From: Candidatus Omnitrophota bacterium
Lineage (GTDB): Bacteria > Omnitrophota > Gorgyraeia > Gygaellales > Profunditerraquicolaceae
Direction: 5' to 3'
NCBI GenBank assembly: GCA_030650425.1
Contig: JAUSED010000012.1
Coordinates: forward strand, 64,905-128,904
DNA length: 64,000 nucleotides
Shown here: piece by piece, positions 5,193 through 35,893 of the stretch
Layout: each line of letters starts with the position of its first letter
Position numbering within the stretch: position 1 is the stretch's first letter
Translations under genes and position numbers: made by a program
The notes under the pieces: model-generated
Seen by the model: only the letters and a program-made list of their open reading frames with translations
What the model was told of the DNA's origin: nothing
Databases searched by the model: none

Positions 5193-6437
5193 GTGCAAAA
5201 TAGAAAAATAGCGGTTGTCGGCGCGGGCCCTGCCGGGATGATCGCGGCAATTAAGGCCGCGCAACTTTCCCAAGAAGTAACTCTTATCGATAAAAACCCT
5301 TCCTTAGGCAAAAAACTCCTGCTTAGCGGCAAAGGCCGCTGTAATCTAACCAATACCTGCGATTTAGATTCATTCTTAAAAAGGTTTTCCAGAAACGGAG
5401 AATTTTTAAGGGATGCCTTTAAGAAATTTTTTAATCAGGATTTGATAAATTTTTTTGAGACAAGAGGCCTCTCGCTTAAAACGGAGAGGCAGTTACGGGT
5501 ATTTCCGGTTACGGACAGCTCGAGTAGTATAGTAAGCGTACTTGAGCAGGAATTGATTAAGCAAAACGTAAAGATTATGCGTAAAACCAAAGTAAAAGAT
5601 ATCTTGATCAAAGAAAATCAGCTAAAAGGATTATATCTGGAAGCCGGCGAATTCCTCCCTTTTGATAAAATAATTCTAGCTACTGGAGGGGCTTCCTACA
5701 GTTTTACCGGTTCAACCGGCGAAGGCTTAAGTTTGGCCAAGAGAGCCGGGCATAAGGTTATTCCATTAAGGCCGGGGCTGGTTCCTTTAGTGACCGAAGA
5801 AAAATATGCTCAAGATCTGGAAGGCCTTACCCTGAAGAATATCCGGCTTAAGTTTTACGCGGGTAAAAATGAAATTATTTCAGAAGTCGGGGAGCTCTTA
5901 TTTACGGGTTTTGGGATTTCCGGGCCGTTAGTGCTTAGCTTAAGCGGTAAAATTGTGGATTGGTTGAATAATAAGAAAGAGGTTTATCTTGAAATAGATT
6001 TAAAGCCGGGCCTGACTAGGGAACAATTAGATTCCCGTTTCTTAAGGGAGTTTAAGGCCAACGCGAAAAAAGGGATTAAACATATTTTGAAAAACATACT
6101 CCCTTTGAGATTAATTAATTTATTTATTGAGCTGGCTAAGATCCAACCCCACAAAAAAGCCAATCAGATTACCTTGAATGAGCGCCAGGCGTTAGTTTCT
6201 CTGCTTAAGGGTTGGCGTTTAAATATCGCTGGTTCCCTTCCGCTGGAAGAAGGGATGATTACCCGGGGTGGAATTTCCTTAAAAGAGATTAACCCTCGCA
6301 CAATGGAATCGCGGCTAGTTAAGGGGCTATATTTTTGCGGGGAGATGATTGATGTGGATGCGGATACCGGAGGATTTAATCTTCAGGCGGCATTCTCGAC
6401 CGGTTATCTTGCCGGAGAAAGCGCTGCGGTAAATTAA
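5193..6437 (+). CDS. HI0933/BaiN-family FAD-dependent oxidoreductase
   Basis: N-terminal Rossmann motif IAVVGAGPAGMIAA; length and C-terminus typical of the YhiN/HI0933 family. Confidence 0.85.
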   Translation: MQNRKIAVVGAGPAGMIAAIKAAQLSQEVTLIDKNPSLGKKLLLSGKGRCNLTNTCDLDSFLKRFSRNGEFLRDAFKKFFNQDLINFFETRGLSLKTERQLRVFPVTDSSSSIVSVLEQELIKQNVKIMRKTKVKDILIKENQLKGLYLEAGEFLPFDKIILATGGASYSFTGSTGEGLSLAKRAGHKVIPLRPGLVPLVTEEKYAQDLEGLTLKNIRLKFYAGKNEIISEVGELLFTGFGISGPLVLSLSGKIVDWLNNKKEVYLEIDLKPGLTREQLDSRFLREFKANAKKGIKHILKNILPLRLINLFIELAKIQPHKKANQITLNERQALVSLLKGWRLNIAGSLPLEEGMITRGGISLKEINPRTMESRLVKGLYFCGEMIDVDADTGGFNLQAAFSTGYLAGESAAVN

Positions 6438-6551
6438 CGGGTCCTGCTCGGGCCTCGGGGTCCTGCCACCGAAGTTTCCCCATTCCTGCGGGCAAGTTTG
6501 TCCTCGGAATAGGGATGCCCCTCTCGGTGTCACCCCTCGGCAACATTTTAT

Positions 6552-7907
6552 ATGACACGAATTTACTTAGCGTCTAAATCTAAAGCACGGAAAGAATTAT
6601 TAGAATCTTTGGGCCTGAAGTTCAAAGTCCTGCCGAGTGCGGTTGAGGAAATAGGGAGCGTAAAGGGGATATCCTATATTAAACTTGTTAAATTAAACGC
6701 ACTGAAGAAAGCCGAAGATGTCGCCGCAAAAGTAAAAGATGGCGTAGTTATCGCCGCGGATACGATTATGGTTCAGCATAATAAGATATTCGGTAAGCCT
6801 AAAGATTTAAAAGACGCGATAGCTACGCTGAAGGCGATGTCCGGAAAAACTCAAACTGTTTATACCGGCCTGGCAGTGATTGAAAAGAAGAGCGGCAGAG
6901 TAATCGTTGATTATGAAAAGACCAGGGTTTATATGGATAAATTAAGCGATAAAGAGATCCGCGCTTATTTTGAAAAAGTTTCTCCGTTGGATAAAGCCGG
7001 AAGTTTTGATATACAGGGCAAGGGCGCATTCTTTATCCGCCGGATTGAAGGTTGTTTTTACAACGTGGTTGGTCTTCCTCTAAGAAAATTATACCGGATC
7101 TTTAAGCAGTTCGGTATAACAAACAATATTTTCTGTTTTCTGTTCTCTGTCTTCTGTTTTCTATCTTTATCCGGTTGTTCTACCGAATATAACATCGTTA
7201 CCGGAGAGCAGGAACTTTATTATTACAATACGGATAAAGAAGTACAGATGGGTAAAGCTATCGCTAAGCAGGTAGAGAAGGAAATGAAGCCCGTGGAGGA
7301 TCCTCTGGTTCAAAAACGCGTGGAGGATATCGGTAAAAAAATCGCCGCGGTTTGCGACAGGAAAGAAATAAATTATTATTTTTACGTACTTAATGAAGAT
7401 GATGTGAACGCCTTTTCGCTTCCCGGAGGATATGTTTTTATTTATAAAGGCCTGGTGGATAAAGTCTCTAATGACGATGAGCTGGCCGGAGTGATCGGCC
7501 ATGAAGTCAGCCATATTGTCGCCCGGCATAGTATCAAGAGGCTTCAGGGACAGCAGTTATATTCTGTGTTAAGAGTCCTCACGGCCGCAGCCCCTAGCAT
7601 GGGAGATGTCGGAGCAGCCGCGGATGTCGCGATTACGCAGCTAATCTTAGGTTACAGCCGGGAAGATGAGCTGCTTGCCGACCAGTTGGGTACCAGATAT
7701 GCCCGGTTGGCTGGTTATGATCCGAACGCGATGATAACTTTTCTTAAGAAATTGCAGGAGGTTCAGAAAAGGCGGCCCTTGGCCCCTATTTCTTACTTTA
7801 AAACACACCCTTATGTCCCGGATAGAATCCGCATCGTCAAGGAAGAGCTAGGTAAAGGAATGAATTTTAATGATTACATTAATATCCAAGATCAGCCGCA
7901 CAAATAA
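6552..7907 (+). CDS. maf: Maf-like nucleoside triphosphate pyrophosphatase (first ~190 aa) continuing in frame into an M48-family metallopeptidase preceded by a lipoprotein signal
   Basis: Maf N-terminus MTRIYLASKSKARKELLESLGL and ending ...NVVGLPLRKLY. A lipobox-type signal FCFLFSVFCFLSLSGCS follows at nt ~7130–7180, then an HEVSH zinc motif (HExxH) typical of M48. No stop separates the two parts. Confidence 0.7.
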   Translation: MTRIYLASKSKARKELLESLGLKFKVLPSAVEEIGSVKGISYIKLVKLNALKKAEDVAAKVKDGVVIAADTIMVQHNKIFGKPKDLKDAIATLKAMSGKTQTVYTGLAVIEKKSGRVIVDYEKTRVYMDKLSDKEIRAYFEKVSPLDKAGSFDIQGKGAFFIRRIEGCFYNVVGLPLRKLYRIFKQFGITNNIFCFLFSVFCFLSLSGCSTEYNIVTGEQELYYYNTDKEVQMGKAIAKQVEKEMKPVEDPLVQKRVEDIGKKIAAVCDRKEINYYFYVLNEDDVNAFSLPGGYVFIYKGLVDKVSNDDELAGVIGHEVSHIVARHSIKRLQGQQLYSVLRVLTAAAPSMGDVGAAADVAITQLILGYSREDELLADQLGTRYARLAGYDPNAMITFLKKLQEVQKRRPLAPISYFKTHPYVPDRIRIVKEELGKGMNFNDYINIQDQPHK

Positions 7908-8982: not shown

Positions 8983-9066
8983 TGGTGCGGAAGGAGGGAG
9001 TTGAACCCTCAAGGGTTTCCCCACTAGCTTCTGAGACTAGCGCGTATGCCATTCCGCCACTTCCGC
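8983..9066 (-). tRNA. tRNA-Leu (anticodon CAG), type II with long variable arm
   Basis: Reverse complement folds as acceptor GCGGAAG/CTTCCGC, anticodon stem CTAGT/GCTAG with loop CUCAGAA, long variable arm, T-arm GAGGG-TTCAACT-CCCTC, and an encoded CCA. It is very similar to E. coli tRNA-Leu(CAG). Confidence 0.9.
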
Positions 9067-9172
9067 ATGACGAGTTAGTATATCCTAGCTCTTACCTCCT
9101 GTCAAATATAAAAGCATTGCCTGCCCATAGTTTTATTGTTATAATAATAATCTTAAATTAAGAGGATAAATT

Positions 9173-10129
9173 ATGCCTTTAGAGCACTTTAAGATAACCG
9201 GTATCGCTGTTTTCCAAATTTTTATTCTGGCGGTAATAGGGTATTTGCTGGTGAAGAGGAAATTTTTAGGAGGAACAGGCCTGGACGCCATCAGCAATCT
9301 GGTGATGGAGGTTACTTTACCCGTCCTTATCTTCTGCCAGCTAATTAAGGATTTCTCTTTCCAAGCTTATCCAAACTGGTGGATTTTTCCTCTTTTAAGT
9401 ATACTTATTACGGCCATAGGTTTGGCGCTAGGATTTCTCTTTTCGTTTTTGGTCAAGGGCGAGCTGCATAAATTGCAGTTTATCAGCTTGGTGGGTTTTC
9501 AGAATTCAGGATACCTCCCTTTGGCTTTGGCAGCGGCTTTACTCTCAGGAGAGCAGCTTAGCGCGATGTTTATCTATTTGTTTTTGTTTCTTACCGGTTT
9601 TAACTTAGTGATGTTTTCCGTCGGTACGCACATCCTGAATTTTCACAAAGAAAGGAAATTTGACTGGTCGAACCTTTTGAGCGCGCCGGTTGTGGTTACC
9701 TTAGTTAGTTTAATCATCATCCTTTTGGGTTGGAATAAATTTGTGCCGGATACAATGATCAAGCCGTTACGGATGTTAGGGGATAGCACGCTTCCTTTAG
9801 CTATGTTGGTAGTCGGTGGGAATCTGGCTGAAATAAGCCTGAAGGCCATTGACAAGAAGGCGATATCGCTTTTAATTTTAGCCAAGATGATTATTCTTCC
9901 CGCGCTAGGCGTGCTGTTAATTATTCCTTTGGGAATCCCGAAATTAATCGGTTTACTCATGCTTATCCAATTGGCCGCGCCTTCGGCAGTGACCTCATCG
10001 GTAATCCTGAGGAATTACAAAAAAGAGGATCTTTTGGTTAGTCAGGGGATACTGCTTACGCATATTGCCAGCATTATTACGATTCCCCTATTTTTAATTA
10101 TATATTTTAGCCAAACTATGCTAAAATGA
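9173..10129 (+). CDS. AEC (auxin efflux carrier) family membrane transporter
   Basis: 318 aa, ~10 TM segments with two-half topology. Confidence 0.6.
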   Translation: MPLEHFKITGIAVFQIFILAVIGYLLVKRKFLGGTGLDAISNLVMEVTLPVLIFCQLIKDFSFQAYPNWWIFPLLSILITAIGLALGFLFSFLVKGELHKLQFISLVGFQNSGYLPLALAAALLSGEQLSAMFIYLFLFLTGFNLVMFSVGTHILNFHKERKFDWSNLLSAPVVVTLVSLIIILLGWNKFVPDTMIKPLRMLGDSTLPLAMLVVGGNLAEISLKAIDKKAISLLILAKMIILPALGVLLIIPLGIPKLIGLLMLIQLAAPSAVTSSVILRNYKKEDLLVSQGILLTHIASIITIPLFLIIYFSQTMLK

Positions 10130-10581
10130 GTAAAATTGTCGCCTCTAACCATAAAGGATACCGGGATTATAGCGTTATCGAGAGTTTTGAGTGCGGCATT
10201 GAACTAAAAGGAAGCGAAGTAAAGTCCATCAGGCAGGCTAAAGTTACTTTGAATGACAGCTTTGCCCGCATTGAAGAAGGCGAGCTGTTTTTATATAACA
10301 CGCATATAAGTCCTTATGCTGAAGCTAGTTATATGAATGTCGAGCCAACGCGAAAACGCAGGCTCCTTTTGCATAAGAATCAGATTGAGAAGTTAGAGGG
10401 TAAGTTGACCCAAAAAAGCCTTACCCTCATTCCCCTAAAAGTGTATTTTAATGACCGGGGATTCGTAAAGGTTGAATTGGCTCTTTGTAAAGGAAAGAAG
10501 CTCTACGATAAAAGAGATGATATTAAGCGGCGCGAAACGGATTTACAGATGCGCCGGATGATGAAGAACATAAGAAAATAG
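10126..10581 (+). CDS. smpB: SsrA-binding protein
   Basis: 151 aa; conserved SmpB motifs (…NRKARHDYxI-like start, KRRLLLHKNQI, and a basic C-tail). Confidence 0.9.
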   Translation: MSKIVASNHKGYRDYSVIESFECGIELKGSEVKSIRQAKVTLNDSFARIEEGELFLYNTHISPYAEASYMNVEPTRKRRLLLHKNQIEKLEGKLTQKSLTLIPLKVYFNDRGFVKVELALCKGKKLYDKRDDIKRRETDLQMRRMMKNIRK

Positions 10582-11004
10582 GGGGTGAATTGGGCTCGAC
10601 TTAGGCCGTCGGGTAAGAGCAGCATGTCGCGGACGCATGGTTAGCCGCGTTAAAAACCCGTGCACAATACAAACGCAAACACAAAAAACCGTTTGTTAAA
10701 TAACGTTCAGCCAGTAATGGCAACTCCAGTAATGGGGATGCCGTTATTTGCTGGCGTTATGCCAGTCTTCGGTAACTAAATTACCGAAGCCTCTATCCAT
10801 CCAGCCTACGGGATGAAATAGAGACTTAGTAGGATAGTCCCGCGTAATTTGCCTTTGTAGGCGGGATGAAGCTTTTAAAGGCTGCGGTTTGCAAATCCTG
10901 CCTTGCGGGAGTTGCAAGCGTAAGCGTAAAACACAGGGCTAAACATGTAGCGGCTTTTATTCGGTTGTTTAAGGACGCCGGTTCGATTCCGGCCACCTCC
11001 ACCA
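10581..11004 (+). ncRNA. ssrA: tmRNA (transfer-messenger RNA), one-piece
   Basis: 5' end GGGGGUGAAUUGGGCUCGAC pairs with the 3' CACCUCC-ACCA, including the G3:U wobble alanine identity element. The T-arm is GCCGGUUCGAUUCCGGC. A long P2 helix pairs ~10605–10620 with ~10953–10968. PK1 stems: CGCGG (10628–32) with CCGCG (10645–49), and GCAUGG (10635–40) with CCGUGC (10658–63). It lies immediately 3' of smpB. Confidence 0.9.
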
Positions 11005-11101
11005 AAATTTTCCGACAAGGAAAATTTTGGTGGATACTCAAGCGAGCGTTAAAAACCGCGTCAAGCGGTTTAGCGAGCGGAGTATCTTTAAATCAAAATC
11101 T

Positions 11102-19694: not shown

Positions 19695-19770
19695 GGTGGC
19701 TATAGCTCAATTGGTTAGAGCGTCTGACTGTGGCTCAGAAGGTTTGCGGGTTCGATCCCCGTTAGCCACC
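19695..19770 (+). tRNA. tRNA-His (anticodon GTG) with G-1
   Basis: Extra 5' G pairs with discriminator C. Acceptor GTGGCTA/TAGCCAC, anticodon stem TCTGA/TCAGA with loop CUGUGGC, T-loop TTCGATC. Resembles E. coli tRNA-His. Confidence 0.85.
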
Positions 19771-21199
19771 CTAATTCTAAATGGCGGTTTTCCGCCATAA
19801 ATTTGAAGTCGGAACTATAAGAAACAATTAGGGTTTTGTTATACAGCTTAAGGTTCGATACAATTTTTTGCAAAAAATCACGCTGGGCGTCGGGATTTGC
19901 CTCCGCTGCGATGTAACTGGCTTGGTGAGCAAGAGTTAGAAAGTTTTTGAAGTGTTCGAGCCAGTCCCCGTTACTGTCACCCTTTTCTGAAATATCGAAC
20001 TTCCTGCTAAACAATTCGGCTTTCTTCTGCTTATACTCTTCGTCGGTAATGATACCCTTTAGCGACATGTCCAAGAGCCGCTTTAGCTGGTCGTCAACCT
20101 CTTGCGTTTTCATTTCGCCGCTAATCCGGTTATGAACTTTTTCCGCTGCAAGGAACGCCCGCTCTCGCTCTAACTCTTTTATCATCCAGGCATAGGCATT
20201 GTCATCAAGCGCAACTTTCTCGATGGCCTCTTTGACTTGTTGGGCGAGATTTTCTTCTCTAAGAAAAACAGAAGACTGCTGGCAGGGATCGCGTTTTTTC
20301 GAGCAATGATAGTAGTGATGTCCTTTTTGAACCTCGGCTGTTATTTGGCAGCCACATTCAGCGCACCTTATAAACCCACGGAAGACAAAATAATGTTTCC
20401 TCTCGTAAGAAGGTTTGCTCCTGAATCTTAAAATCTCCTGCACCTTATCAAATAATTCTTTGTTTATAATAGGCGGGTGGCTGCCCTGGAAAATCTCGCC
20501 CTTATACACAAAGAGGCCAAGATAGAATTGATTCGTTAATATCCGGTGGACGTTACTGTACGAAAGCGGGCGCTTGGCTCTCTTGCTCACCAAGCCAGAC
20601 GCAGTCGCCAATTTTCTCAACTCATCAACCGTATATCTTCCTTCAGCGCACAAGGCATACAATCTCTGTACAAGGGGAGAGGCGAGGGGATCAACAGTTA
20701 TTTTACCTCTATCGTTTAAATACCCGATAGGCGCGAATGCGGGATATTCGCCAAGCCTTACCTTTTCGCGCAAGCCACGCTTAGTGTTTTCGCTTAGATT
20801 ATCAACGTAGTATTTACTCTGACCGAAAATAATATTGAGCATAAACTTGCCTTGTGCGCTGTTATCGAAGCGGTAAGTAGGGAAGCGAAGATCAAGGATA
20901 TCCCCGGTATCTACGAGATAGATAATTTTTCCGCCATCTATCGAGTTGCGCGCAAGTCTATCCGGATGCCAGGCGATGATGCCGGACGCCTCACCTTTCT
21001 CAATTCGTTTAATCATTTCGTCAAATATCGGGCGTCCGGGTGACTTAGCTGTCTTGGCTTCTTGAAATTCCTGAACTATTAAGAGGTTTTCTTTCTTGCC
21101 GTATTCGCGAACTTCGTTTAATTGCGACTGAATAGAGAGGACTTGCTTATCTTCTGTGTCGGTAGACTTGCGCGCATACAAGAAATATTTCATCTCCAC
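19715..21199 (-). CDS. Large serine recombinase (resolvase catalytic domain + recombinase domain + zinc ribbon + coiled coil)
   Basis: Catalytic motif YARKSTDTEDKQ near the N-terminus; zinc ribbon CAECGC...HCSKKRDPC; 494 aa. The last ~62 codons run through IR-L and antisense into the 3' half of tRNA-His. Confidence 0.9.
   Translation of the reverse strand: MEMKYFLYARKSTDTEDKQVLSIQSQLNEVREYGKKENLLIVQEFQEAKTAKSPGRPIFDEMIKRIEKGEASGIIAWHPDRLARNSIDGGKIIYLVDTGDILDLRFPTYRFDNSAQGKFMLNIIFGQSKYYVDNLSENTKRGLREKVRLGEYPAFAPIGYLNDRGKITVDPLASPLVQRLYALCAEGRYTVDELRKLATASGLVSKRAKRPLSYSNVHRILTNQFYLGLFVYKGEIFQGSHPPIINKELFDKVQEILRFRSKPSYERKHYFVFRGFIRCAECGCQITAEVQKGHHYYHCSKKRDPCQQSSVFLREENLAQQVKEAIEKVALDDNAYAWMIKELERERAFLAAEKVHNRISGEMKTQEVDDQLKRLLDMSLKGIITDEEYKQKKAELFSRKFDISEKGDSNGDWLEHFKNFLTLAHQASYIAAEANPDAQRDFLQKIVSNLKLYNKTLIVSYSSDFKFMAENRHLELGWLTGIEPANLLSHSQTL
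19773..19901. repeat. Left copy of a perfect 129-bp inverted repeat (IR-L)
   Basis: Reverse complement is identical over 129 bp to 21324–21452. Starts 3 nt after tRNA-His. Encodes 43 C-terminal residues of the recombinase. Confidence 0.9.
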
Positions 21200-21323
21200 A
21201 CCTCCTTAGAAAATTGGCGACTGCGTCCGTCAAGCATTTACGGAACTTATATCGCAGCGGGTCTGCTCAAAGAGCAGACAGTTATAAAATTTTGAGTCCT
21301 CAACAACTCAAAATTATTTAACA

Positions 21324-21452
21324 GGCAAATCCCGACGCCCAGCGTGATTTTTTGCAAAAAATTGTATCGAACCTTAAGCTGTATAACAAAACCCTAATTG
21401 TTTCTTATAGTTCCGACTTCAAATTTATGGCGGAAAACCGCCATTTAGAATT
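21324..21452. repeat. Right copy of the perfect 129-bp inverted repeat (IR-R)
   Basis: Identical to the reverse complement of 19773–19901. Lies 125 bp upstream of the recombinase start codon. Confidence 0.9.
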
Positions 21453-22080
21453 GGGGTCCTTGCTTTCTGGTAATCGAAAGATTTTTAGCTCCAAATATAC
21501 TTAATTTTTTCTCGTCTCTCTGAAACCCCTCTACTCCCCGGGGTAAAGCCCTAAGGAAACAGCTTAAAATGCACCGCGCCCACAAACAAATTCTTTCCCG
21601 GAAAGAACCTCTACTACTATATTATCGCCGCTCTGCCCCGCCCTTTAAGGTTACTGTATCTAATACCGGGGTAAAGCTGGTCTCTAAGGAAACAGCTTAA
21701 ATGCACCGCGCCCTGGGGGGCGCTCCCACATTGAGCGTGCATTGGCGCTCGCTGGGCCGCTCGCTTCGAGCTAATTTTAGTGCGTGTGCGGCGCAGCTGT
21801 GGCTTGCGCCGGGCGGGGGCGGCGCAAGCCACAGCGTCCTCACCCGACATGCTGTTACAAGCTAAAAACAAAATTTTTTAGAGAGGTTCGTCCGCTATGC
21901 CGCTATTACTCCCCAAATACAGCTTTGGACGCGGCATTGCTGCGCCTCTCCCGATCAACACTTTAAAGCTCAAACATTGGGGCGGGCGTGGTGCTGCCTG
22001 TCCTCCGCAGGAGGAGGCACGTCCGCCCCACATCTACCCTTGGCTCCGGCAAAATTTGGTGCGGGCAAATTTTGCCTAAC
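21453..22080. other. GC-rich (about 65–70%) structured non-coding segment with two ~45-bp direct repeats and several perfect hairpins
   Basis: Direct repeats 21538–21581 and 21666–21713. Perfect 16-bp hairpin 21796–21835. 10-bp hairpin GGCAAAATTT/AAATTTTGCC near 22040–22075. No ORF with coding character. Confidence 0.4.
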
Positions 22081-22201
22081 CCTTAAAACCATTAGCTCAA
22101 AGAAAGAACGAAAAAGAGATATTTTAAAAAGCACTTTTGGTGTATAATATTGCTTAATAATGATGGATTAAATATACTTTCCTGATAATGCTATCATAAT
22201 A

Positions 22202-22423
22202 ATGCAACATAGTCAAGGGGGATTCATGTTAGGTCAAAACATAAAAAAATTTAGAAAAAAGAAAAAATTGACGCAGGATACACTTGCTCGAATTGCAAAT
22301 ATCCCCTATACAAGCATAACGAAGATTGAAACTGGCGTAATAAAGAAGCCTTCTGTTCAGGCAGTTGCTAAAATAGCAAAGGCTTTAGGTATTTCAATAG
22401 ATGCATTAATGGAGGGAGTTTAA
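22202..22423 (+). CDS. XRE-family HTH regulator (candidate R-M controller, C-protein)
   Basis: HTH motif LTQDTLARIANIPYTSITKIETG; small gene immediately upstream of mod. Confidence 0.7.
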   Translation: MQHSQGGFMLGQNIKKFRKKKKLTQDTLARIANIPYTSITKIETGVIKKPSVQAVAKIAKALGISIDALMEGV

Positions 22424-22454
22424 AAATAGGCATATTATACGAGGAGATAAAATT

Positions 22455-24392
22455 ATGCAAAATTTAATCGATGACTTGCTGAAGTTATTAAAAAAAGACG
22501 AGCGTCTTGTTTCGCAAGATGGCGTACTTTTAAAAAATCAAACACAGGAATTGGCGCGCAAAAATGATCCCCAGCTCATAAAACTTTTGCTTTCTGATAA
22601 AGCCATAAAACAGCACTTCTTTTTTGAAGTCGAAAAGGCTCTGATTTTTGATAAAGAAAAATTCGTCCGCTTTGTATCCAATAAACAGTTTTTACCGGAT
22701 TCATATACCACATTTTCTCAAAATATTGGACTATTGCACGAAGATGGAAGGATGTTCAGAGAAATTAATGCTGAAAAAGAAGTTGTTTTGGTTTGGCCTT
22801 ACAAGGATTGTATTTTGGAAGGCGGGATGACCAAAGAAGACCTAAAGCGCGATGAGATTTTTTATAACGAAACCTTGGCGCCGGATGACATTAACCGCTT
22901 GATGGATGCCAAAGTTTTCACCGATTTCAAACGGATAGACAAAAAGGGCGAGCATAAACTGGACGGCTTCAAGCGTGATGAAAGAGGTACAATTAAAGAC
23001 AATTTGATTATTAAAGGAAATAACCTTCTTGCACTTGCTTCGCTTAAAAAAGAATTCGCAGGGAAAGTGAAATTGATTTACATTGATCCGCCATATAATA
23101 CCGGAGGTGCCGTTGATACCTTTACATACAACAATGACTTTGATCACTCCACGTGGTTAGTTTTTATGAAAAATAGGCTTGAAATAGCCAAATCATTTCT
23201 GAGAGAGGATGGATTTATTGCAATTACTATCGATCACGAGGAATTATATTATTTAGGCGCATTAGCCGATGAAGTATTTCGTAGAGAAAATCGGGTTGGT
23301 TTAGTCACAATCTATATAAATCCAAAAGGAAGACAGCATGAGAAGTTCTTTTCTGCTGCGACTGAATACATGCTTATATATGCGAAAAATAAAGTTAGTG
23401 CGAAATTTAATAAAATTACGCTAGATGATGAGATAGCCGAAACTTTTGATTTTTCTGATGATGATGGGGATTATCGCTTGGAAAAATTTATTAGAGCAAG
23501 AACTAGTACGTCGAGAAAAAATAAGCCGGATTTTTATTATCCGATTTATGTAAGTAACGATCTGAAGGATATTACGCTCATTAAGAAACCTGGCTATAAG
23601 GCGGTATTTCCTATCCAAAATGGTGTTGAATACTCTTGGAAAACTATTTCCAAGACATTTGATGAGCGAAATATAAACGGCTTTTTTGTTGCCAAAAAGG
23701 AACAAGGCGAAATTGTTATTTATCATAAATACTACGAACAGCAGGTTTTAAAGAACCTATGGACTGATAAAAAGTATTTTCCTGAATTTCAGGGAACAAA
23801 CTTGTTAAAAAAACTTTTGGGGGCGAACCTGTTTAGTTATCCTAAATCTTTGTATGCGGTGGTAGACACATTAAAGATTATGACCAGCGGAAATGATATT
23901 GTTATGGATTTTTTTGCAGGCTCAGGCACCACTGGGCACGCAACCCTAGCGTTAAACGAGGAAGATGAACAACAGAGGCAATTCATTTTGGTTGAACAAT
24001 TAGATAGACATATTGATGTTTGTATAAAAAGAATAAAAAAAGTCTTGGAACAAAGCACAAAACAGAACAACTTCATATATATGGGGCTCGCAAAATGGAA
24101 CGAGGATTGGATAGAAAAAATAGAAAAAGCTAAGACCGGAAAAGAGCTTGCCAAACTTTGGGACGAGATGAAAGAAATCGCCTTTTTGAGCTACAAAGTT
24201 GATCCAAAAACAGTTGATGCAAATTCCAAAGAATTCGCAGATTTGGGGATTACCGACCAAAAGAAGTTTTTGGTTGAATGCTTGGATAAAAATCAGCTTT
24301 ATATCAATTTGAGCGAGATTGAGGATAAAGAATACGGGGTGAGCAAAGATGATAAAGATCTGAATAAGAGCTTTTATAATGGGAAACAATGA
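22455..24392 (+). CDS. mod: Type III R-M Mod subunit (beta-class N6-adenine DNA methyltransferase)
   Basis: Motif IV DPPYNTGG precedes motif I FFAGSGTTGHA (beta-class order); 645 aa; overlaps the start of res. Confidence 0.85.
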   Translation: MQNLIDDLLKLLKKDERLVSQDGVLLKNQTQELARKNDPQLIKLLLSDKAIKQHFFFEVEKALIFDKEKFVRFVSNKQFLPDSYTTFSQNIGLLHEDGRMFREINAEKEVVLVWPYKDCILEGGMTKEDLKRDEIFYNETLAPDDINRLMDAKVFTDFKRIDKKGEHKLDGFKRDERGTIKDNLIIKGNNLLALASLKKEFAGKVKLIYIDPPYNTGGAVDTFTYNNDFDHSTWLVFMKNRLEIAKSFLREDGFIAITIDHEELYYLGALADEVFRRENRVGLVTIYINPKGRQHEKFFSAATEYMLIYAKNKVSAKFNKITLDDEIAETFDFSDDDGDYRLEKFIRARTSTSRKNKPDFYYPIYVSNDLKDITLIKKPGYKAVFPIQNGVEYSWKTISKTFDERNINGFFVAKKEQGEIVIYHKYYEQQVLKNLWTDKKYFPEFQGTNLLKKLLGANLFSYPKSLYAVVDTLKIMTSGNDIVMDFFAGSGTTGHATLALNEEDEQQRQFILVEQLDRHIDVCIKRIKKVLEQSTKQNNFIYMGLAKWNEDWIEKIEKAKTGKELAKLWDEMKEIAFLSYKVDPKTVDANSKEFADLGITDQKKFLVECLDKNQLYINLSEIEDKEYGVSKDDKDLNKSFYNGKQ

Positions 24393-27300
24393 TGTTATAT
24401 GACGAATTTAATACATATAAAAATTTTGCCGGTGCCGATGTTTTCAAAAATAAGGCGTTAGCAAAATCGGAGATTTTGAAAAGTATCAATCCGGCTTTTC
24501 CTGCGCGTGAATACCAGAAGGAAACGCTGGGACGGTTTTATTATTATTGTGAAGAATATCACCAAAAACAAAAGCCGATCCATTTGATGTTTAATATGGC
24601 GACCGGTTCGGGCAAGACGCTCATCATGGCGGCCAATATTCTATATTTATATCAAAAAGGCTATCGTAATTTCATTTTTTTCACCCGCCTTGGCAATATC
24701 ATCCAAAAGACGAAAGCCAATTTTCTCGATCCGACTTCTAAGAAATATCTCTTTGCCGACAAAATAGTATTTGGCGGGAAAGAAGTAAAAATCAATGAAG
24801 TAGATAATTTTGAGGGCGTCAGTGATGAGGACATAAGCGTTATTTTTTCTACCACATCGCTTTTACACTCTCGTTTTAATTACGCCCGCGAAAATGTTTT
24901 AACTTACGAAGATTTTGAGGATAAGAAAATTGTGTTGATTGCCGATGAAGCGCATAACTTGTCAGCGGAAACAAACGGTAAGATTAGCAAAACTGATGAA
25001 GAAGACCGCCGAAATTGGGAAAACACAGTAATGCGGATTTTGAACGCCAACAGCCAAAAAGACAATGTGCTTTTGGAATTTACGGCTACTGCCCGGCTTG
25101 AACAGGAATACCCGGAAATCATTGAAAAATATAAAGACAAGGCAATTTATCGGTACGATCTTAAAGAATATCGCTTGGACGGATTTTCAAAAGATGTGCG
25201 AACGTTACAGATTGATGCGCCGATTATGGAGCGAGTGCTTTCGGCGGTGATTATTTCACAGTACCGTTTAAAAATAGCGGGAAAGCACAAAATCGCATTA
25301 AAGCCGGTAGTTATGTTTAAGGCCAATAGGGTAAGTATTCCCAAGGAAGGAATATCTAAAGCGTATAATCCGCAAATTGTCGTTTCAAGTATTTTTAAGG
25401 ATTCTTTTCACAAGCTTATTGCCGGGCTCAATGAAAAAGCAATTCAACAGCAAGCCAAAATCAAAGATGACACATTACAAAAGGTTTTTCGATTCTTCAA
25501 AGAGCAAAAAATCTCACTATCTAATTTGGCGGAAGAAATCAAAAATGATTTTGCGCCTGAAAAATGTATAACAGTTGATGATGATAAAGATTTGGAGCAA
25601 AAACAACTTCTGTTGAATTCACTGGAGGATCGAAATAATGAAATTCGAGCGGTTTTTGCTACTGAAAAATTAAACGAAGGTTGGGATGTTCTCAACCTTT
25701 TTGATATTGTCCGTCTTTACAATAGCCGTGACGCTAAAGGCAATAAGCCGGGGAAAACGACGGTTCAGGAAGCACAGCTGATTGGGCGAGGAGCAAGATA
25801 CTATCCATTTACGATTGCGGATTTTACTGATCCATATCGCCGAAAATATGATGCTGATACACAAAATGAGCTTCGGATTTTAGAACAGCTTTATTATCAT
25901 AGCGTTACCAATACCAGATATATTCAAGAGCTAGAAACTGTCCTAGTCCGTGAAGGCATTATTCCTTCTCGAACAGTGCAAAAAGAAATAAGAATAAAAG
26001 CCGATTTTAAACTTAGCGATTTTTGGAAGGAAGGATACATTTTCTTAAATTCACGCAAGCAAAATTTGGGTAAGGATATTTTTGCGCTTTCGGACGCCAA
26101 AGCGGTATTTGATTACAATGCCGAAAGCAATATTTTTCAATTACCGACAAGAGAAGCAATTGAAAAAGATTTATTCGTTGCTGGCGCTGGTGTTGGAGAA
26201 AAAGCTAAGATAGAAATCAAGGAATTTAGACTCATTGACTTAGGAAGGCATGTCATTCGCACTGCTTTGATGAAGATACCTTCTGGGCAATTTAACGAGT
26301 TAAGCAAGATATTCGGCAATATAGAATCTGCGAAAGATTTTATTTCAAACGAAAAATACCTTGGTGGAGTCAAAATAAAAGTCAAGGGCACAAGTGAGCA
26401 GGTAGCGAATCTTCTGCAGGTTGAAAAATTAAGCATTGCCGGATTTGTGGTTGATAAAGTGCTAATAATTGCAACTAAAGAGAAAAAAGAATACTACGGG
26501 ACAAATGAATTTAAGGCTCATTTGGTCCAGAAGATATTTGAAAACGATAAAGTGCTCCAGTTGGACAGTGAAAGCCCGAGAGCGCAAAATATGCGGGATT
26601 TCGATTTTGATAATAAGGAATGGTTTGCGCAAAACGAAATCTGGGGGACTAGCGAGGAAGAGGCATTTTTGCGATTTATTGATGAGGCAATAGCCAAACT
26701 ACAGAAGAAATATCAAGATATTGCCTTGCTCCGCAATGAGCAGTTTTTCAAAATTTACAGCTTTGAAAATGGCGAGCCATTTTATCCGGATTTTGTTTTG
26801 TTTTTGACCGAGAAGAAGACGAAGCAAGAAGTTATGTATCAAATATTTATTGAGCCCAAAGGCGACCAATTCTTGGATGCGCAGAACACCTTTGAACAAT
26901 CTAAAGAAAGCTGGAAGCAAAAATTGCTTCTTGAAATAGAAAATAATCATACTGTTGATTTAAAAATAGAAAACAAGGATTTTCGTTTAATAGGCTTGCC
27001 TTTTTATAATAAGCAATTGCAGGAGAAGTTTAGCGAGGCTTTTGAGCGATTTGTTGATTCGCCCAGACAGGAGAAATCGGATTTATTCTTTAGCGATGTT
27101 ATTCCGGAATCAACTTACTCAGAAGGCTATCTCCCAATTTGCGATCTTCAGGCAGTAGCAACTTCTTTCCGAGAGCAAAAGACTCCTACGATTAAAGGCT
27201 GGAAGCCCGCGAAGAAGAAGTATACAGAGGGTTATTTTATCGCTCAGGTCATAGGCAAATCTATGGAATCGACCATACCTGACGGAAGCTGGTGTTTGTT

Positions 27301-27562
27301 CCGGCCAGACCAAGGCGGTTCGCGTAATGGCAAAATTGTGTTAGCTGAATCACGCAGGGTAACTGATCCCGAAACCCAGCAAAGTTTTACCATCAAGAGG
27401 TATAGAAGCGAAAAGAGGCAGTTTAAGGATGAAACGTGGATCCACACCAAAATAACTCTTTCCCCGGACAATAAAGAATTCAAAGATATCGTCCTAAAAA
27501 ATGTTCGTGAAGATGAATTCCACATAGCGGCGGAGTTTGTGGAGGTCTTGTCAAAAGAATAG
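24389..27562 (+). CDS. res: Type III R-M Res subunit (SF2 helicase + endonuclease) with C-terminal LexA/S24-like autopeptidase domain
   Basis: Walker A MATGSGKT; DEAH box LIADEAHN. The C-terminal ~120 aa align to the LexA C-domain: GKSMESTIPDGSW (Ser motif), NGKIVLAE, and FTIKRY (Lys). Confidence 0.8.
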   Translation: MMLYDEFNTYKNFAGADVFKNKALAKSEILKSINPAFPAREYQKETLGRFYYYCEEYHQKQKPIHLMFNMATGSGKTLIMAANILYLYQKGYRNFIFFTRLGNIIQKTKANFLDPTSKKYLFADKIVFGGKEVKINEVDNFEGVSDEDISVIFSTTSLLHSRFNYARENVLTYEDFEDKKIVLIADEAHNLSAETNGKISKTDEEDRRNWENTVMRILNANSQKDNVLLEFTATARLEQEYPEIIEKYKDKAIYRYDLKEYRLDGFSKDVRTLQIDAPIMERVLSAVIISQYRLKIAGKHKIALKPVVMFKANRVSIPKEGISKAYNPQIVVSSIFKDSFHKLIAGLNEKAIQQQAKIKDDTLQKVFRFFKEQKISLSNLAEEIKNDFAPEKCITVDDDKDLEQKQLLLNSLEDRNNEIRAVFATEKLNEGWDVLNLFDIVRLYNSRDAKGNKPGKTTVQEAQLIGRGARYYPFTIADFTDPYRRKYDADTQNELRILEQLYYHSVTNTRYIQELETVLVREGIIPSRTVQKEIRIKADFKLSDFWKEGYIFLNSRKQNLGKDIFALSDAKAVFDYNAESNIFQLPTREAIEKDLFVAGAGVGEKAKIEIKEFRLIDLGRHVIRTALMKIPSGQFNELSKIFGNIESAKDFISNEKYLGGVKIKVKGTSEQVANLLQVEKLSIAGFVVDKVLIIATKEKKEYYGTNEFKAHLVQKIFENDKVLQLDSESPRAQNMRDFDFDNKEWFAQNEIWGTSEEEAFLRFIDEAIAKLQKKYQDIALLRNEQFFKIYSFENGEPFYPDFVLFLTEKKTKQEVMYQIFIEPKGDQFLDAQNTFEQSKESWKQKLLLEIENNHTVDLKIENKDFRLIGLPFYNKQLQEKFSEAFERFVDSPRQEKSDLFFSDVIPESTYSEGYLPICDLQAVATSFREQKTPTIKGWKPAKKKYTEGYFIAQVIGKSMESTIPDGSWCLFRPDQGGSRNGKIVLAESRRVTDPETQQSFTIKRYRSEKRQFKDETWIHTKITLSPDNKEFKDIVLKNVREDEFHIAAEFVEVLSKE

Positions 27563-27639
27563 ATCAATTTTTTAACGTCAAGTGAAGAGCGTAATAGTGG
27601 GTCACGGGTATTGTATTTTGCATAATTGAGTCGGTTCAA

Positions 27640-28482
27640 ATGGAAATAATTCTAAACATAGTATCGGGTGGTCTTTCAGGCGCATTGTTAGTGTGGCTTT
27701 TGCGCCACTGGATTTCTGAGCGCATAAAAGAAAGCATAAAACACGAGTATGCGCAAAGACTTGAAGCATATAAGGCTGAACTTAATGCCAATATCCAGTC
27801 AGTGTTACATGAACAGCAACTATATCAACTTCGAACGTCTCTTTTTTTTGAACACCAGCGGCTGGCGTTCGCTTCTATCCTTAGCCAGATTGCTGAAACT
27901 AAGCAAAAATGGTTTGAAACTGGATATGATTCAGAGTTGGGGTGGCAAGAGCAGGTTCCAGTACCTACTGGGGAATACGATAAACTGAAAAAGGCATATT
28001 ATGATCATCAGCTTTTTTTAGATCAGGATTGTATTTTTGCGCTTGATTTAGTTCTTGAAGCAATGAGCGATTCATTCCCAGTTCAAGAGGGGGATGGTAC
28101 ATTGCATCATAGAGACTGCGAAGAGCCTTATGAGCGCTTGGTGTTCTTGCAAGAACGAGTTGCTCTGCTTTTTCAGGAAAAAATAGGGCTCAGAGTGTCG
28201 CAAGAAATAAAGACGGAGCTTGCTCTTTTAGGGGCAATCAGATTGCTCAATCGTTATCATTTTAAGGATATAGATCTGCCGGTTAAAGGGCCTTTGAAAT
28301 TGACTGCCGAAGATAAAGCTTTTGATGCTGTGATTAAGGCAGAAAAAAATAAAGCGGAATTGGTTTCAAAGTTAACTGAATTTAGAAATCATCTGGAGAA
28401 GGAAGGTTTCTTTCATGATGCATGGGAAATGGCAACCCGATGCCTTAATCTCCTTTCTGCCACAAAGAAAATTCCTACATAA
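27640..28482 (+). CDS. Hypothetical protein with N-terminal TM helix
   Basis: ORF with coding-like composition only; no motif recognised. Confidence 0.35.
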   Translation: MEIILNIVSGGLSGALLVWLLRHWISERIKESIKHEYAQRLEAYKAELNANIQSVLHEQQLYQLRTSLFFEHQRLAFASILSQIAETKQKWFETGYDSELGWQEQVPVPTGEYDKLKKAYYDHQLFLDQDCIFALDLVLEAMSDSFPVQEGDGTLHHRDCEEPYERLVFLQERVALLFQEKIGLRVSQEIKTELALLGAIRLLNRYHFKDIDLPVKGPLKLTAEDKAFDAVIKAEKNKAELVSKLTEFRNHLEKEGFFHDAWEMATRCLNLLSATKKIPT

Positions 28483-28565
28483 CAAAAACATTGACAAAGC
28501 AGGACAAATAATGTATATTTTAAGTAGAGAATATTATAAATGTCCCAAATCGAGGACAAATTAAA

Positions 28566-29705
28566 ATGGATAGATTGATTATTATAGGCGAGCGCCTCAA
28601 ACGCGCTCGCGAATCGTTGGGATTAACTCAAGAAGATGTGGCCGCCAAGCTTGAGATTGGCAGGCCTCGTTATTCTGATATTGAAAACGGTAAAAGGGAC
28701 GTTCCGTTAAAAGATCTCTACCGGTTTGCTGAATTTTACGGACGTCCGATCGATTATTTCGTTAAAGAAACCTTATTGACTGATAGCGGGTTCAAAGTTC
28801 TTTTCAGGAAGACCGAAGGCGACGAAGAAGTTGCTCGAGTTGTTACTGAATTTGAAAATCTATGTGAGAAAATGTGCGAGCTTGAGAATATATCAGGCGT
28901 TACAGTCCGGCCGCCAGTCAGTCAGGATTATCAATTTGAACGGAATAGAGAATGGTATTGGGGCAAGCATTACGCGGATATTGAAAGAAAACAACTTGAT
29001 CTCGGCCAAGCCCCACTGCGAAATTTAAGCCAGCTTCTCGAAGAGAAACGCGGCCTTAAGATTTTTTATCTGCCTATCCCGCCTGAACGCGGCGTTTACG
29101 GAATGTTTACTTATGATCAGAAGATGGGCGGATGCGTTCTTATTAATTCAAATCCGAATTTTGGCAATCAGCTTTTTTCGCTCGCGCATGAATACGCTCA
29201 TTTTGTGTTCCATAAAGAGAAGTTGGGTATTATTTCGACGGAGCAAGAGAGAAACTCAACAGATGAGAAAGTCGCGAATAGTTTCGCAAGCAATTTCCTA
29301 ATACCGGAAGATACCTTGCGCGATCTTTTTAGTATGAGAATCAAGGAAGATGATGATGTTAAGTCGGAAGATGTTATTTATCTTGCGGATTATTTCGGAG
29401 TTAGCTTTACCGCAATGGTATATCGCCTTAATAATTTAAAACTTATTACAGATAAGATTAAAGATGAACTTATAAATTATACTTGGGTAACCTCCGTTCG
29501 TGAATCGATGGGGATATCTGAGCCGGAGCGTAGCAGATCGAAATTTCCTACCCTTTACCTGCATCTCGCCATTAAGGCCTTTCAACAGGGGAAATTAACT
29601 ACTGCCAAACTCGCCGACTTCCTGGAAATTCCTCTTTATCAAGCGATGGATCTGGGGAGAAAATTAAGAGGGAGTATTCAGGATGGGCCCGGCGACTCTG
29701 TTTAA
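28566..29705 (+). CDS. HTH-XRE / ImmA-IrrE (M78 metallopeptidase, COG2856) fusion protein
   Basis: N-terminal HTH LTQEDVAAKLEIGRPRYSDIENG; C-terminal zinc motif SLAHEYAHFVFH. Confidence 0.8.
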   Translation: MDRLIIIGERLKRARESLGLTQEDVAAKLEIGRPRYSDIENGKRDVPLKDLYRFAEFYGRPIDYFVKETLLTDSGFKVLFRKTEGDEEVARVVTEFENLCEKMCELENISGVTVRPPVSQDYQFERNREWYWGKHYADIERKQLDLGQAPLRNLSQLLEEKRGLKIFYLPIPPERGVYGMFTYDQKMGGCVLINSNPNFGNQLFSLAHEYAHFVFHKEKLGIISTEQERNSTDEKVANSFASNFLIPEDTLRDLFSMRIKEDDDVKSEDVIYLADYFGVSFTAMVYRLNNLKLITDKIKDELINYTWVTSVRESMGISEPERSRSKFPTLYLHLAIKAFQQGKLTTAKLADFLEIPLYQAMDLGRKLRGSIQDGPGDSV

Positions 29706-30177
29706 CGGGAATAAAGTTGTTTTTGATGCCATGGTTATTATTAATTTCCATGGCCTTATTATGCTCGATAAGCTTATCGGTTGGGCTCCAAAAGAAATTG
29801 TTATTGAGAAAAGTATAAGAAAAGAAGCGAGCCATTCAATGAACGGCCCGATAGACCTTGAACCGTATATATCCAGCGGTTCTGTAATAGAAGAAGAAAT
29901 TCACGGCAAGGATCAAGAAGACCTTTTTTATGAGTATCGCAATAAAAGAATAGGTGATGCGGTTATCCATGCGGGTGAAGCCGCTTGCCTTGCGCTGGCA
30001 ATCTCAAAAGGCTACGGCCTTGCCAGCGATGAACTCGTTGTAAGGAATGAATTTAAATCTCGTTGTTCTGGCAAGACGTGCGTTCACTCGTGGGATATCG
30101 TGACAATTTCGCAGAAGCTCGGGTTTATTAATCAAGCCGAAGCGAACGCCTTGAAGAAAGGCTTATATTACGTATAG
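29683..30177 (+). CDS. Hypothetical protein, possible PIN-like nuclease fold (DUF4411-like partner of ImmA fusions)
   Basis: Overlaps the upstream gene by 23 nt. An early acidic residue in VVFDAMVIINF is consistent with PIN strand 1. Weak. Confidence 0.3.
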   Translation: MGPATLFNGNKVVFDAMVIINFHGLIMLDKLIGWAPKEIVIEKSIRKEASHSMNGPIDLEPYISSGSVIEEEIHGKDQEDLFYEYRNKRIGDAVIHAGEAACLALAISKGYGLASDELVVRNEFKSRCSGKTCVHSWDIVTISQKLGFINQAEANALKKGLYYV

Positions 30178-30179
30178 CT

Positions 30180-30518
30180 ATGCGAGGAAAATTTACACTT
30201 AATACCGCGAATATCGATGCCACAGTACCGGCTACCTCCGGCGCTTATGTGCTGGTTAACAGTAGCAATAACGCCGTTTATGTTGGAATGTCAGATACTG
30301 ATTTAAATGGCCGGTTAAAAAATCACCTGCCTGAGCGTGAAGAAAATTCGTGGATAAAGCGAAGCTTTCCGACAGACTTTTACTTTGAGTCGACAGCTAA
30401 TTCGCAAGAAGCTTATAGATTGGAATGCGAATGGTTCCATCAATATCGTCCGAGCTGTAATACCGCGCATCCTGCAAAATTATCTTATAGCTGGGCCTGC
30501 CCAATCTGCGGGTTATAA
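30180..30518 (+). CDS. GIY-YIG domain protein
   Basis: GAYVL...YVG...R...E spacing typical of the GIY-YIG core; 112 aa. Confidence 0.55.
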   Translation: MRGKFTLNTANIDATVPATSGAYVLVNSSNNAVYVGMSDTDLNGRLKNHLPEREENSWIKRSFPTDFYFESTANSQEAYRLECEWFHQYRPSCNTAHPAKLSYSWACPICGL

Positions 30519-30660
30519 ATCCCTGCATTTTCTGAAATCGCTGATAATATTTTGAAACCATCGTTCAGATAATTGCCCCGCTATTCGAAAATTTAGAATA
30601 GTTCGCTTATATAGATTTTGATTGCTCGGGCGTATGGGTATATAAGGGAGTATTATTAAA

Positions 30661-33945: not shown

Positions 33946-33973
33946 TAATTTAAAGCCCTCTTTAGGGGAATCA

Positions 33974-35755: not shown

Positions 35756-35893
35756 TCACTTTGCGTGGCTGTATATAAGATCGCACTAAAAATAAACATG
35801 ATGACCGTATTTGTTTTATGGCTGCAAATAGTTGGAAATAAAACGATAACCAAAATTAATGTGATATCATAGAGATAAACTAGAAGTTTAAAT

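Follow-up and report, generated by a model that had tools for sequence, protein, structure and literature searches.

A transfer-messenger RNA of Candidatus Omnitrophota with a long, Ala-Ala-free tag and a tag reading frame predicted to fold

The gene discussed here is a transfer-messenger RNA (tmRNA, ssrA) at positions 10581-11004 on the plus strand of a stretch of 64,000 nucleotides from a Candidatus Omnitrophota bacterium (contig JAUSED010000012.1); this whole stretch is called the window. We consider it highly probable that the gene is a functional tmRNA and that its long tag without a terminal Ala-Ala is normal for its lineage; the tag would most likely serve a degradation route that does not use Ala-Ala. 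Translation of 10675-10779 gives 34 sense codons, ANTKNRLLNNVQPVMATPVMGMPLFAGVMPVFGN, and then a stop; the tag contains no acidic residues and ends in PVFGN. Among the matches listed, a scope that holds for all counts of tags and of distinct reading frames given below, all 125 unique long tags lack a terminal Ala-Ala. The preliminary description of this DNA had pointed out the missing Ala-Ala and suggested that proteolysis targeting differs in the lineage; the first point is borne out by these tags, and the second would fit both their endings and their selected composition.

The identity of the gene is well supported. ARAGORN and the Rfam model RF00023 return a one-piece tmRNA of 424 nt with the same coordinates, and the RF00023 match is untruncated over model positions 1-374 (170.7 bits against a gathering score of 47; E 1e-67). 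The acceptor stem can be read directly from the sequence as G10581-G10587 paired with C10994-C11000, which is the outer helix in the covariance-model alignment; it includes G10583:U10998, the G3:U alanine identity pair, and ACCA is encoded directly 3′ of it. The block of pseudoknot 1 (PK1) is almost invariant among 29 aligned relatives. On the G3:U acceptor, the T arm and the PK1 stems, ARAGORN, RF00023 and sequence reading agree with what had been described for this gene, and none of the described details proved wrong. The window shares with a standard RF00023 tmRNA, such as E. coli SsrA (tag ANDENYALAA), the G3:U tRNA-like domain, PK1, an A-rich stretch followed by GCA-AAC, the stop codon in helix 5, PK2-PK4 and SmpB. 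To call the architecture canonical, as the preliminary description did, is right for the domains and incomplete for the whole, as an extra long hairpin lies inside the reading frame; the strong folding of that frame had been missed.

The position of the resume codon decides the length of the tag. Downstream of PK1 (10628-10663), ACAAUACAAAC leads into GCA 10675, with ACAAAC as the immediate context. RF00023 aligns its consensus resume 'GCa AAC' to 10675-10680 with maximal posterior probability and models the next ~70 nt as an insertion. AAACGCA (A91-A97) is invariant in a 29-sequence alignment of relatives, and the frame from AAAC/GCA to the helix-5 stop is open in 34 of 34 tmRNAs (window plus relatives). 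These three lines uphold the resume codon first proposed at 10675-10677. Two in-frame alanine codons inside the tag, GCA 10720 and GCU 10750, had been named as alternative starts, and ARAGORN itself reports for the window a 19-residue tag, ATPVMGMPLFAGVMPVFGN, beginning at GCA 10720 (gene position 140). On 23 related loci the program places the resume codon at gene position 94-97, with tags of 22-33 residues. Deleting one codon from the window tag (34 to 33) moves the call to position 95; four relatives with 34 codons (L002, L003, L014 and L031; L numbers denote related loci) go undetected until one codon is deleted; and when codons are added to relatives with 32-33 codons the call is lost or shifts to an internal alanine codon. 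ARAGORN thus has a ceiling of 33 codons, so the 19-residue tag is a software artefact. GCA 10720 is not conserved in the nearest relatives and lies inside a predicted stem, and relatives carry in-frame indels and synonymous changes upstream of it. Resumption at an internal alanine was ruled out on the codon deletion and insertion tests, the invariant AAAC/GCA and the covariance model. A different frame with a conventional tag was also rejected, with stops in frame +1 in 119 and in frame +2 in 110 of 130 sequences and no long-tag relative ending in AA. The check by ARAGORN, covariance model and relatives that had been recommended for this gene thus ends with the model fixing 10675 and no conventional AA-ending alternative frame. 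For resumption at 10675, tag-junction peptides in the window would read AANTKNR / LLNNVQPVMATPVMGMPLFAGVMPVFGN (beginning AANTKNRL...).

The same ceiling has consequences beyond the window, since ARAGORN silently misreports or misses tmRNAs with tags of more than 33 codons, and automated annotations for Omnitrophota will hold wrong tag peptides. Nine complete tmRNAs among 33 related genome loci were all missed by ARAGORN and found by Rfam or manual inspection; the ceiling accounts for four of these, with 34-codon tags, which a one-codon deletion restored, and the other five may have been missed for other reasons. Run on the remaining loci from other phyla, ARAGORN gave no further smpB-adjacent tmRNAs.

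At its other end the frame stops at UAA 10777-10779, inside the 5-nt loop (10776-10780) of the perfect 9-bp helix-5 hairpin, which two extra pairs widen to 10764-10792. Translation, folding and relatives all support this end of the 34-codon frame, as originally described. The stop falls in the helix-5 loop in 120 of 120 distinct sequences folded, and two pairs of the helix covary (G-C to C-G).

To place the window tag in its lineage, relatives were collected from genome loci (ARAGORN, Rfam coordinates, motif) and from metagenome contigs matched by a 31-nt degenerate PK1 pattern, the latter giving at least 120 loci. The tag set comprises 150 complete tags, of which 129 are unique and 125 both unique and long. 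Most SmpB relatives (65-89% identity) belong to metagenome-assembled genomes labelled Candidatus Omnitrophota, and a few carry other submitter labels. The long tags range from 22 to 38 codons with a mode at 29-30; lengths of 34, 35, 36, 37 and 38 codons occur 9, 4, 3, 1 and 1 times, so that the window tag stands in the upper tail of the distribution. One 37-codon tag (L098) is nearly identical to that of L002, with ...ALKSHSLIK instead of ...ALKAIP and the stop later in the helix-5 region, as if by a frameshift or a sequencing error near the end of the frame; it should not count as a natural 37-codon tag unchecked.

The endings and the composition of these tags are distinctive. The last residue is Asn in 80 (64%), His in 22 (18%), Pro in 9 (7%), Arg in 5, Phe in 3, Gln in 2, Tyr in 2, and Lys and Leu in 1 each. 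Overall the long tags consist of 16% A, 12% P, 11% V, 8% L, 8% N, 7% M and 7% F; their C-terminal halves hold 16% P, 16% A, 12.5% V, 10.5% M and 10% F, with D+E at 0.2%. They start with AN in 102 of 125 cases, and what comes next is basic or polar (NRL, SRL) where the AANDENY-type SspB site is acidic. An N-terminal AN...(N/S)R(L/V/M) part is found in 79, and P-x-(F/M) units occur in the C-terminal part of 116, often ending P-(A/V)-F-(A/G)-(L)-N. The tags look bipartite: the two ends are conserved, and the spacer between them varies in length. As judged from these sequences the long Ala-Ala-free tag is a trait of the lineage, and coverage of the whole phylum is not claimed. Six metagenomic tmRNAs (L111, L121, L125, L164, L168 and L193) have the same PK1 pattern and conventional tags of the form A(N/K)xEELALAA; they lie on Planctomycete-like contigs without an adjacent smpB, and L193, where the open reading frames (ORFs) were read, looks high in G+C. 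Since Ala-Ala ends are kept in these six short-tag relatives and in Chlamydia, the long Ala-Ala-free tag was probably derived within Omnitrophota. In L193 (5934-7548), the tmRNA 3′ end is closely followed by a 396-aa ORF (6358-7548) that looks by eye like a tyrosine-type integrase; this would be a classic genomic-island arrangement.

Several observations indicate selection on the peptide. Frame 0 is open in all 130 distinct nucleotide sequences, against 11 for frame +1 and 20 for frame +2, and 24% of shuffles are open. Indels among relatives are all multiples of three, including one 15-nt insertion. The pair L016-L018 shows six synonymous and two non-synonymous differences (ratio of non-synonymous to synonymous change, pN/pS, 0.09), the pair L010-L012 has a pN/pS of 0.19, and the closest pairs overall lie at 0.09-0.28. 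Frame 0 encodes 1.3% D+E, 12.8% Pro and 52% hydrophobic residues, against 4.4-7.9% D+E and 1.7-8.2% Pro in the other five frames; window proteins, for comparison, have 9.8% D+E and 3.5% Pro. Codon position 2 is a pyrimidine in 73% of codons. The terminal Asn is kept both as AAC paired in helix 5 and as AAU in the loop. In sum, variable sites number 80, 70 and 112 at codon positions 1, 2 and 3.

The extra length of the tag is also where the RNA is predicted to fold. For the segment 10664-10766 the predicted folding energy is -38.8 kcal/mol, where dinucleotide shuffles give -20.6 +/- 3.0 (z -6.1); the mRNA-like domain 10660-10795 reaches -50.4 kcal/mol (z -6.8), with three consecutive hairpins predicted. 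The resume-context hairpin has an alternative register, GCAAAC (10675-10680) with GUUUGU (10691-10696), and 117 of 130 distinct relatives are predicted to have a first hairpin with 4 bp or more. The long imperfect hairpin that follows is, as modelled, the lineage-specific insertion that makes the tag long. For the relatives, 130 distinct frames were folded one by one with the helix-5 codons removed. Against dinucleotide shuffles their mean z is -3.3 (110/130 below -2), and 100 random coding segments of the window taken as a control give a mean z of -0.08, two of them below -2. With the peptide fixed and synonymous codons resampled the mean z is -2.5 (129/130 below 0), and with codon order shuffled it is -3.4 (108/130 below -2); five relatives folded separately lie between -2.0 and -4.0. 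By these folding models, RNA structure in the tag frame exceeds chance.

A layout of two hairpins is predicted in 103 of the 130 frames, with a main hairpin of median 19 bp (up to 32 bp) spanning a median of 52 nt. Tag length follows hairpin span (r = 0.77), and the unpaired part of the frame stays at ~28 nt, near the 30 nt of a conventional 10-codon frame. Pairing changes were counted within 17 gap-free groups of close relatives, on consensus structures that had themselves been obtained from these sequences. Of 391 predicted pairs 68 vary, with 15 double compensatory changes and 43 one-sided changes via G-U; 58 variable pairs keep pairing and 17 pairs have a non-pairing variant. Column variability in these groups is 11% for paired and 24% for unpaired positions. 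An expected register in which third codon positions pair with each other proved wrong: position 1 pairs predominantly with position 1, and position 2 with position 3. The register is inherited with the frame, so it was not taken as independent evidence. If the extra tag length is an RNA hairpin inserted in the frame, as predicted, then the same nucleotides would be under structural as well as coding constraint; selection appears to act on peptide composition as well as on RNA structure.

A number of points weigh against this reading of the tag and its frame. The counts over related sequences, the 130/130 open frames included, share ancestry and are not independent events. Constraint on the peptide looks moderate, and compositional more than positional. 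The RNA of the NRL motif, CGUUUG, is the complement of the invariant CAAACG of the resume context, and in this model part of the NRL conservation can be explained by RNA pairing and not by peptide function. The frame hairpins are energy predictions on isolated segments, and the pair counts in the gap-free groups have the circularity mentioned above. A MAFFT alignment of the reading-frame region analyzed with RNAalifold recovered helix 5 only; in that alignment the 5′ ends did not line up correctly, and sequence similarity does not suffice to align the hairpin arms. Neither the window nor 912 kb of related loci yielded a relevant hit in motif scans for ClpX, ClpP, Lon, FtsH, ClpA/B and Ctp, which says only that these proteases are not encoded nearby.

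With these points taken into account, we favor a mechanism that departs little from ordinary trans-translation until the tag is made. Alanine-charged tmRNA with SmpB would enter the stalled ribosome, and translation would resume at GCA 10675, with the ribosome unwinding the resume-context hairpin, then the 26-bp hairpin at 10700-10760, and then helix 5. Alanine and the 34 encoded residues would be added before termination at UAA 10777 in the helix-5 loop. The resulting tag would consist of a polar, basic N-terminal part (AN..NRL) followed by a nearly acid-free segment in which Pro, Ala, Val, Met and Phe are abundant. The composition of the tag is selected although Ala-Ala never ends it, and for this reason the tag most likely remains a degradation signal, one read independently of Ala-Ala-COOH. 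By analogy with the Mycoplasma tag, we infer recognition of the extended hydrophobic segment by Lon or FtsH as the most likely route; in E. coli, ssrA-tagged proteins are substrates of both as well (PMC8012679). The hairpin in the frame may compact the enlarged mRNA-like domain, protect it from nucleases, or gate the resume codon in the way proposed for helix m.

The alternatives differ in how far they depart from this reading. One extends it: a broad Omnitrophota clade would carry a dual-coded tmRNA module in which the hairpin is the coding sequence of a new class of tags, 22-38 codons long, acid-free, rich in Pro, Met and Val and with Asn, His or Pro at the end, read by a protease or adaptor without an Ala-Ala-COOH rule, with the hairpin also gating the resume codon or pacing translation. 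We regard this wider proposal as tentative. It is unlikely, if still credible, that ClpXP remains in use, with a lineage-specific adaptor or an altered ClpX pore that reads the N-terminal AN..NRL or the C-terminal Phe-x-Asn instead of Leu-Ala-Ala. The bipartite tag with its variable spacer does resemble the layout of SspB site and ClpX site in the E. coli tag, and Chlamydia, a relative within the Planctomycetes-Verrucomicrobia-Chlamydiae (PVC) group, uses ClpX on a tag ending in VAA (PMC7468207). However, the Ala-Ala-COOH that ClpX needs is absent from every long tag, a change of VAA to VDD blocks recognition in Chlamydia (PMC7468207), and the NRL motif may be a by-product of RNA pairing.

A distinctly unlikely alternative holds that the RNA helix is the selected feature and the peptide a harmless open by-product without a specific degradation signal, ribosome release being the sole function that matters. 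The strength of the structure beyond what the peptide requires, the dependence of tag length on hairpin length and the only moderate amino-acid constraint would all be expected under it, and reviews hold that ribosome release, not proteolysis, is essential in trans-translation (PMC8012679). It does not sit well, however, with a composition specific to frame 0 (almost no Asp/Glu, 13% Pro, 52% hydrophobic), the pyrimidine excess at codon position 2, the pN/pS values of the closest pairs, or the persistence of the C-terminal P-(A/V)-F-(A/G)-(L)-N and its final Asn whether or not the codon is base-paired; proteases of the Lon and FtsH types also recognize hydrophobic, unstructured tails of this kind. 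A short true tag of 19 or 9 residues, resuming at GCA 10720 or GCU 10750, is hardly credible after the tests of the resume codon described above.

Table 1. Features of the tmRNA gene and its upstream neighbor (window positions).
Feature	Positions	Strand	Basis
smpB	10126..10581	+	Pfam SmpB PF01668, 192.5 bits, profile positions 1-143/143
5′ acceptor strand GGGGGUG	10581..10587	+	sequence reading and covariance-model bracket
Pseudoknot PK1, stems 10628-32/10645-49 (5 bp) and 10635-40/10658-63 (6 bp, one G-U)	10628..10663	+	sequence; one stem matched by covariance model
Resume-context hairpin (predicted), 7 bp, ACAAACG 10669-75 / CGUUUGU 10690-96	10669..10696	+	energy folding
Tag frame, GCA 10675-77 to UAA 10777-79, 34 sense codons, peptide ANTKNRLLNNVQPVMATPVMGMPLFAGVMPVFGN	10675..10779	+	covariance model, translation, relatives
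Long imperfect hairpin (predicted), 26 bp (4 G-U), apical loop GUAA 10729-32, wholly inside tag frame	10700..10760	+	folding
Helix 5, core 9 bp (10767-75/10781-89), loop CUAAA with stop	10764..10792	+	folding; all 120 distinct sequences
PK2-PK4 domain and 3′ strand of helix 2	10793..10972	+	covariance-model alignment over all model positions, domain taken as a whole
T arm 10977-10993 (stem 10977-81/10989-93, loop UUCGAUU), 3′ acceptor strand 10994-11000, ACCA 11001-04	10977..11004	+	sequence and covariance model

Comparison with known systems helps to separate what is unusual here from what is not. The 34 codons of the window tag stand against a modal length of 10 in standard tmRNAs (PMC11915505), and the tag ends in Asn without acidic residues where E. 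coli SsrA ends in Leu-Ala-Ala. The ~60 extra nucleotides of the frame form the predicted 26-bp hairpin, which RF00023 treats as an insertion. Reviews give a range of 8-35 residues for tags (PMC8012679, PMC2862035), and the 2005 records were 126 nt for the longest mRNA-like domain and 425 nt for the longest tmRNA (PMC1168896), next to ~128 nt and 424 nt in the window. Tag length alone is thus not unprecedented; it is within or just above the reviewed range, and the relatives with 36-38 codons are just beyond it. In a 2014 survey of 710 unique tags a hydrophobic terminal residue was the rule, and Carsonella was the sole species with a charged one (PMC4131195). In the curated 2025 tmRNA database Omnitrophota are represented by 416 standard and 18 intron-form sequences from 600 genomes; the accompanying report gives the modal length and highlights only the shortest tags, and does not mention the Omnitrophota tags, their length, their endings or the folded frame (PMC11915505). 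Our literature search on Omnitrophota tmRNA tags or proteases found nothing relevant. As far as we found, the sequences have been catalogued and their features have not been described.

A known parallel is in Mycoplasma, where Lon recognizes a 27-residue tag and the genome has no ClpXP (PMC8403727). The Mycoplasma/Mesoplasma tags and the Omnitrophota tag share a length above 20 residues and a hydrophobic C-terminal part. The Mycoplasma tags, which have acidic and Lys/Asn-rich stretches, terminate in ...YAFA; in the Omnitrophota tags Pro, Met and Val are abundant and the last residue is mostly Asn, His or Pro. For Mycoplasma tmRNA we found no description of a folded reading frame. Chlamydia tmRNAs are likewise unusually long (425 nt; PMC1168896) and take part in standard trans-translation, but the Ala-Ala end is kept, in a VAA-ending tag read by ClpX (PMC7468207). 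Hairpins within the mRNA-like domain also have a precedent in 'helix m' (m1/m2), predicted from folding energies in E. coli, B. anthracis and Caulobacter (Burks et al., 2005, PMC1168896). The predicted window hairpin at 10669-10696 is its counterpart, a small one that would sequester the resume region and have to melt before resumption; what goes beyond helix m in Omnitrophota is a second, far larger predicted hairpin that scales with tag length.

The genomic surroundings of the gene are also of interest. A full-length smpB lies directly upstream, and ssrA is probably co-transcribed with it. The last G of the smpB stop codon UAG (10579-10581) is nucleotide 1 of the tmRNA, an overlap of 1 nt. 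In 136 related loci the smpB-ssrA spacer ranges from -8 to 320 nt, with a 1-nt overlap in four, including the window, and at most 10 nt in about 38. RNase P cleavage of an smpB-ssrA co-transcript would leave the smpB message without a complete stop, and with the shared G the cleaved message would be a possible substrate of its own rescue system; a comparable idea has been put forward for Carsonella (PMC4131195). The order tRNA-Leu(CAG) (minus strand), membrane transport protein, smpB, ssrA is kept in most related Omnitrophota loci (window 8983-10581, loci L001-L034) and is a useful marker for locating the tmRNA where ARAGORN fails. At the other end of the gene, 10998-11013 (UCCACCA and the A/U run after it) can pair with the trailer 11019-11034, which ends in UGGUGGA, in a perfect 16-bp hairpin. 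A hairpin of this design, though with a different stem sequence, is present in about half of 97 distinct relatives (e.g. L011, L018 and L025). From its position the hairpin at 10998-11034 looks like a terminator, or a processing element that sequesters the CCA end in the precursor.

Elsewhere in the window, a tRNA-His gene (19696-19771) lies beside a large serine recombinase (19715-21199, minus strand), and a type III restriction-modification pair follows, with Mod at 22455-24392 and Res at 24389-27562, the latter with an unusual C-terminal Peptidase_S24 domain. A stretch of low GC (0.35-0.39, ~24-36 kb) contains ORFs of 1094, 593 and 391 aa without a Pfam match. On this gene content, 19696-37069 is probably an integrated mobile or defence island. 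A 451-aa ORF at 6552-7907 combines a Maf-like nucleotide pyrophosphatase (residues 3-187) and a lipoprotein-like M48 metallopeptidase (residues 252-431, HEVSH) with no stop between them; it may represent one genuinely fused gene or a read-through of two genes. Among the relatives, L075, in a complete Omnitrophota chromosome, has an Rfam group I intron at 5860-6058 (52.7 bits, just over threshold) beside tRNA-Pro; the tmRNA database has 18 intron-form tmRNAs from Omnitrophota (PMC11915505).

It is of general importance that a whole lineage lacks the near-universal Ala-Ala tag end and yet keeps its tag under selection. Abandoning this end while the tag is still selected predicts a different pairing of degron and protease, and Mycoplasma is the known precedent for a lineage that switched its tag to a different protease (PMC8403727). 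It appears that long tags in Omnitrophota arise as a hairpin within the reading frame grows longer, and the part of the frame left unpaired, ~28 nt, bears on the amount of single-stranded message that is needed when the ribosome switches templates.

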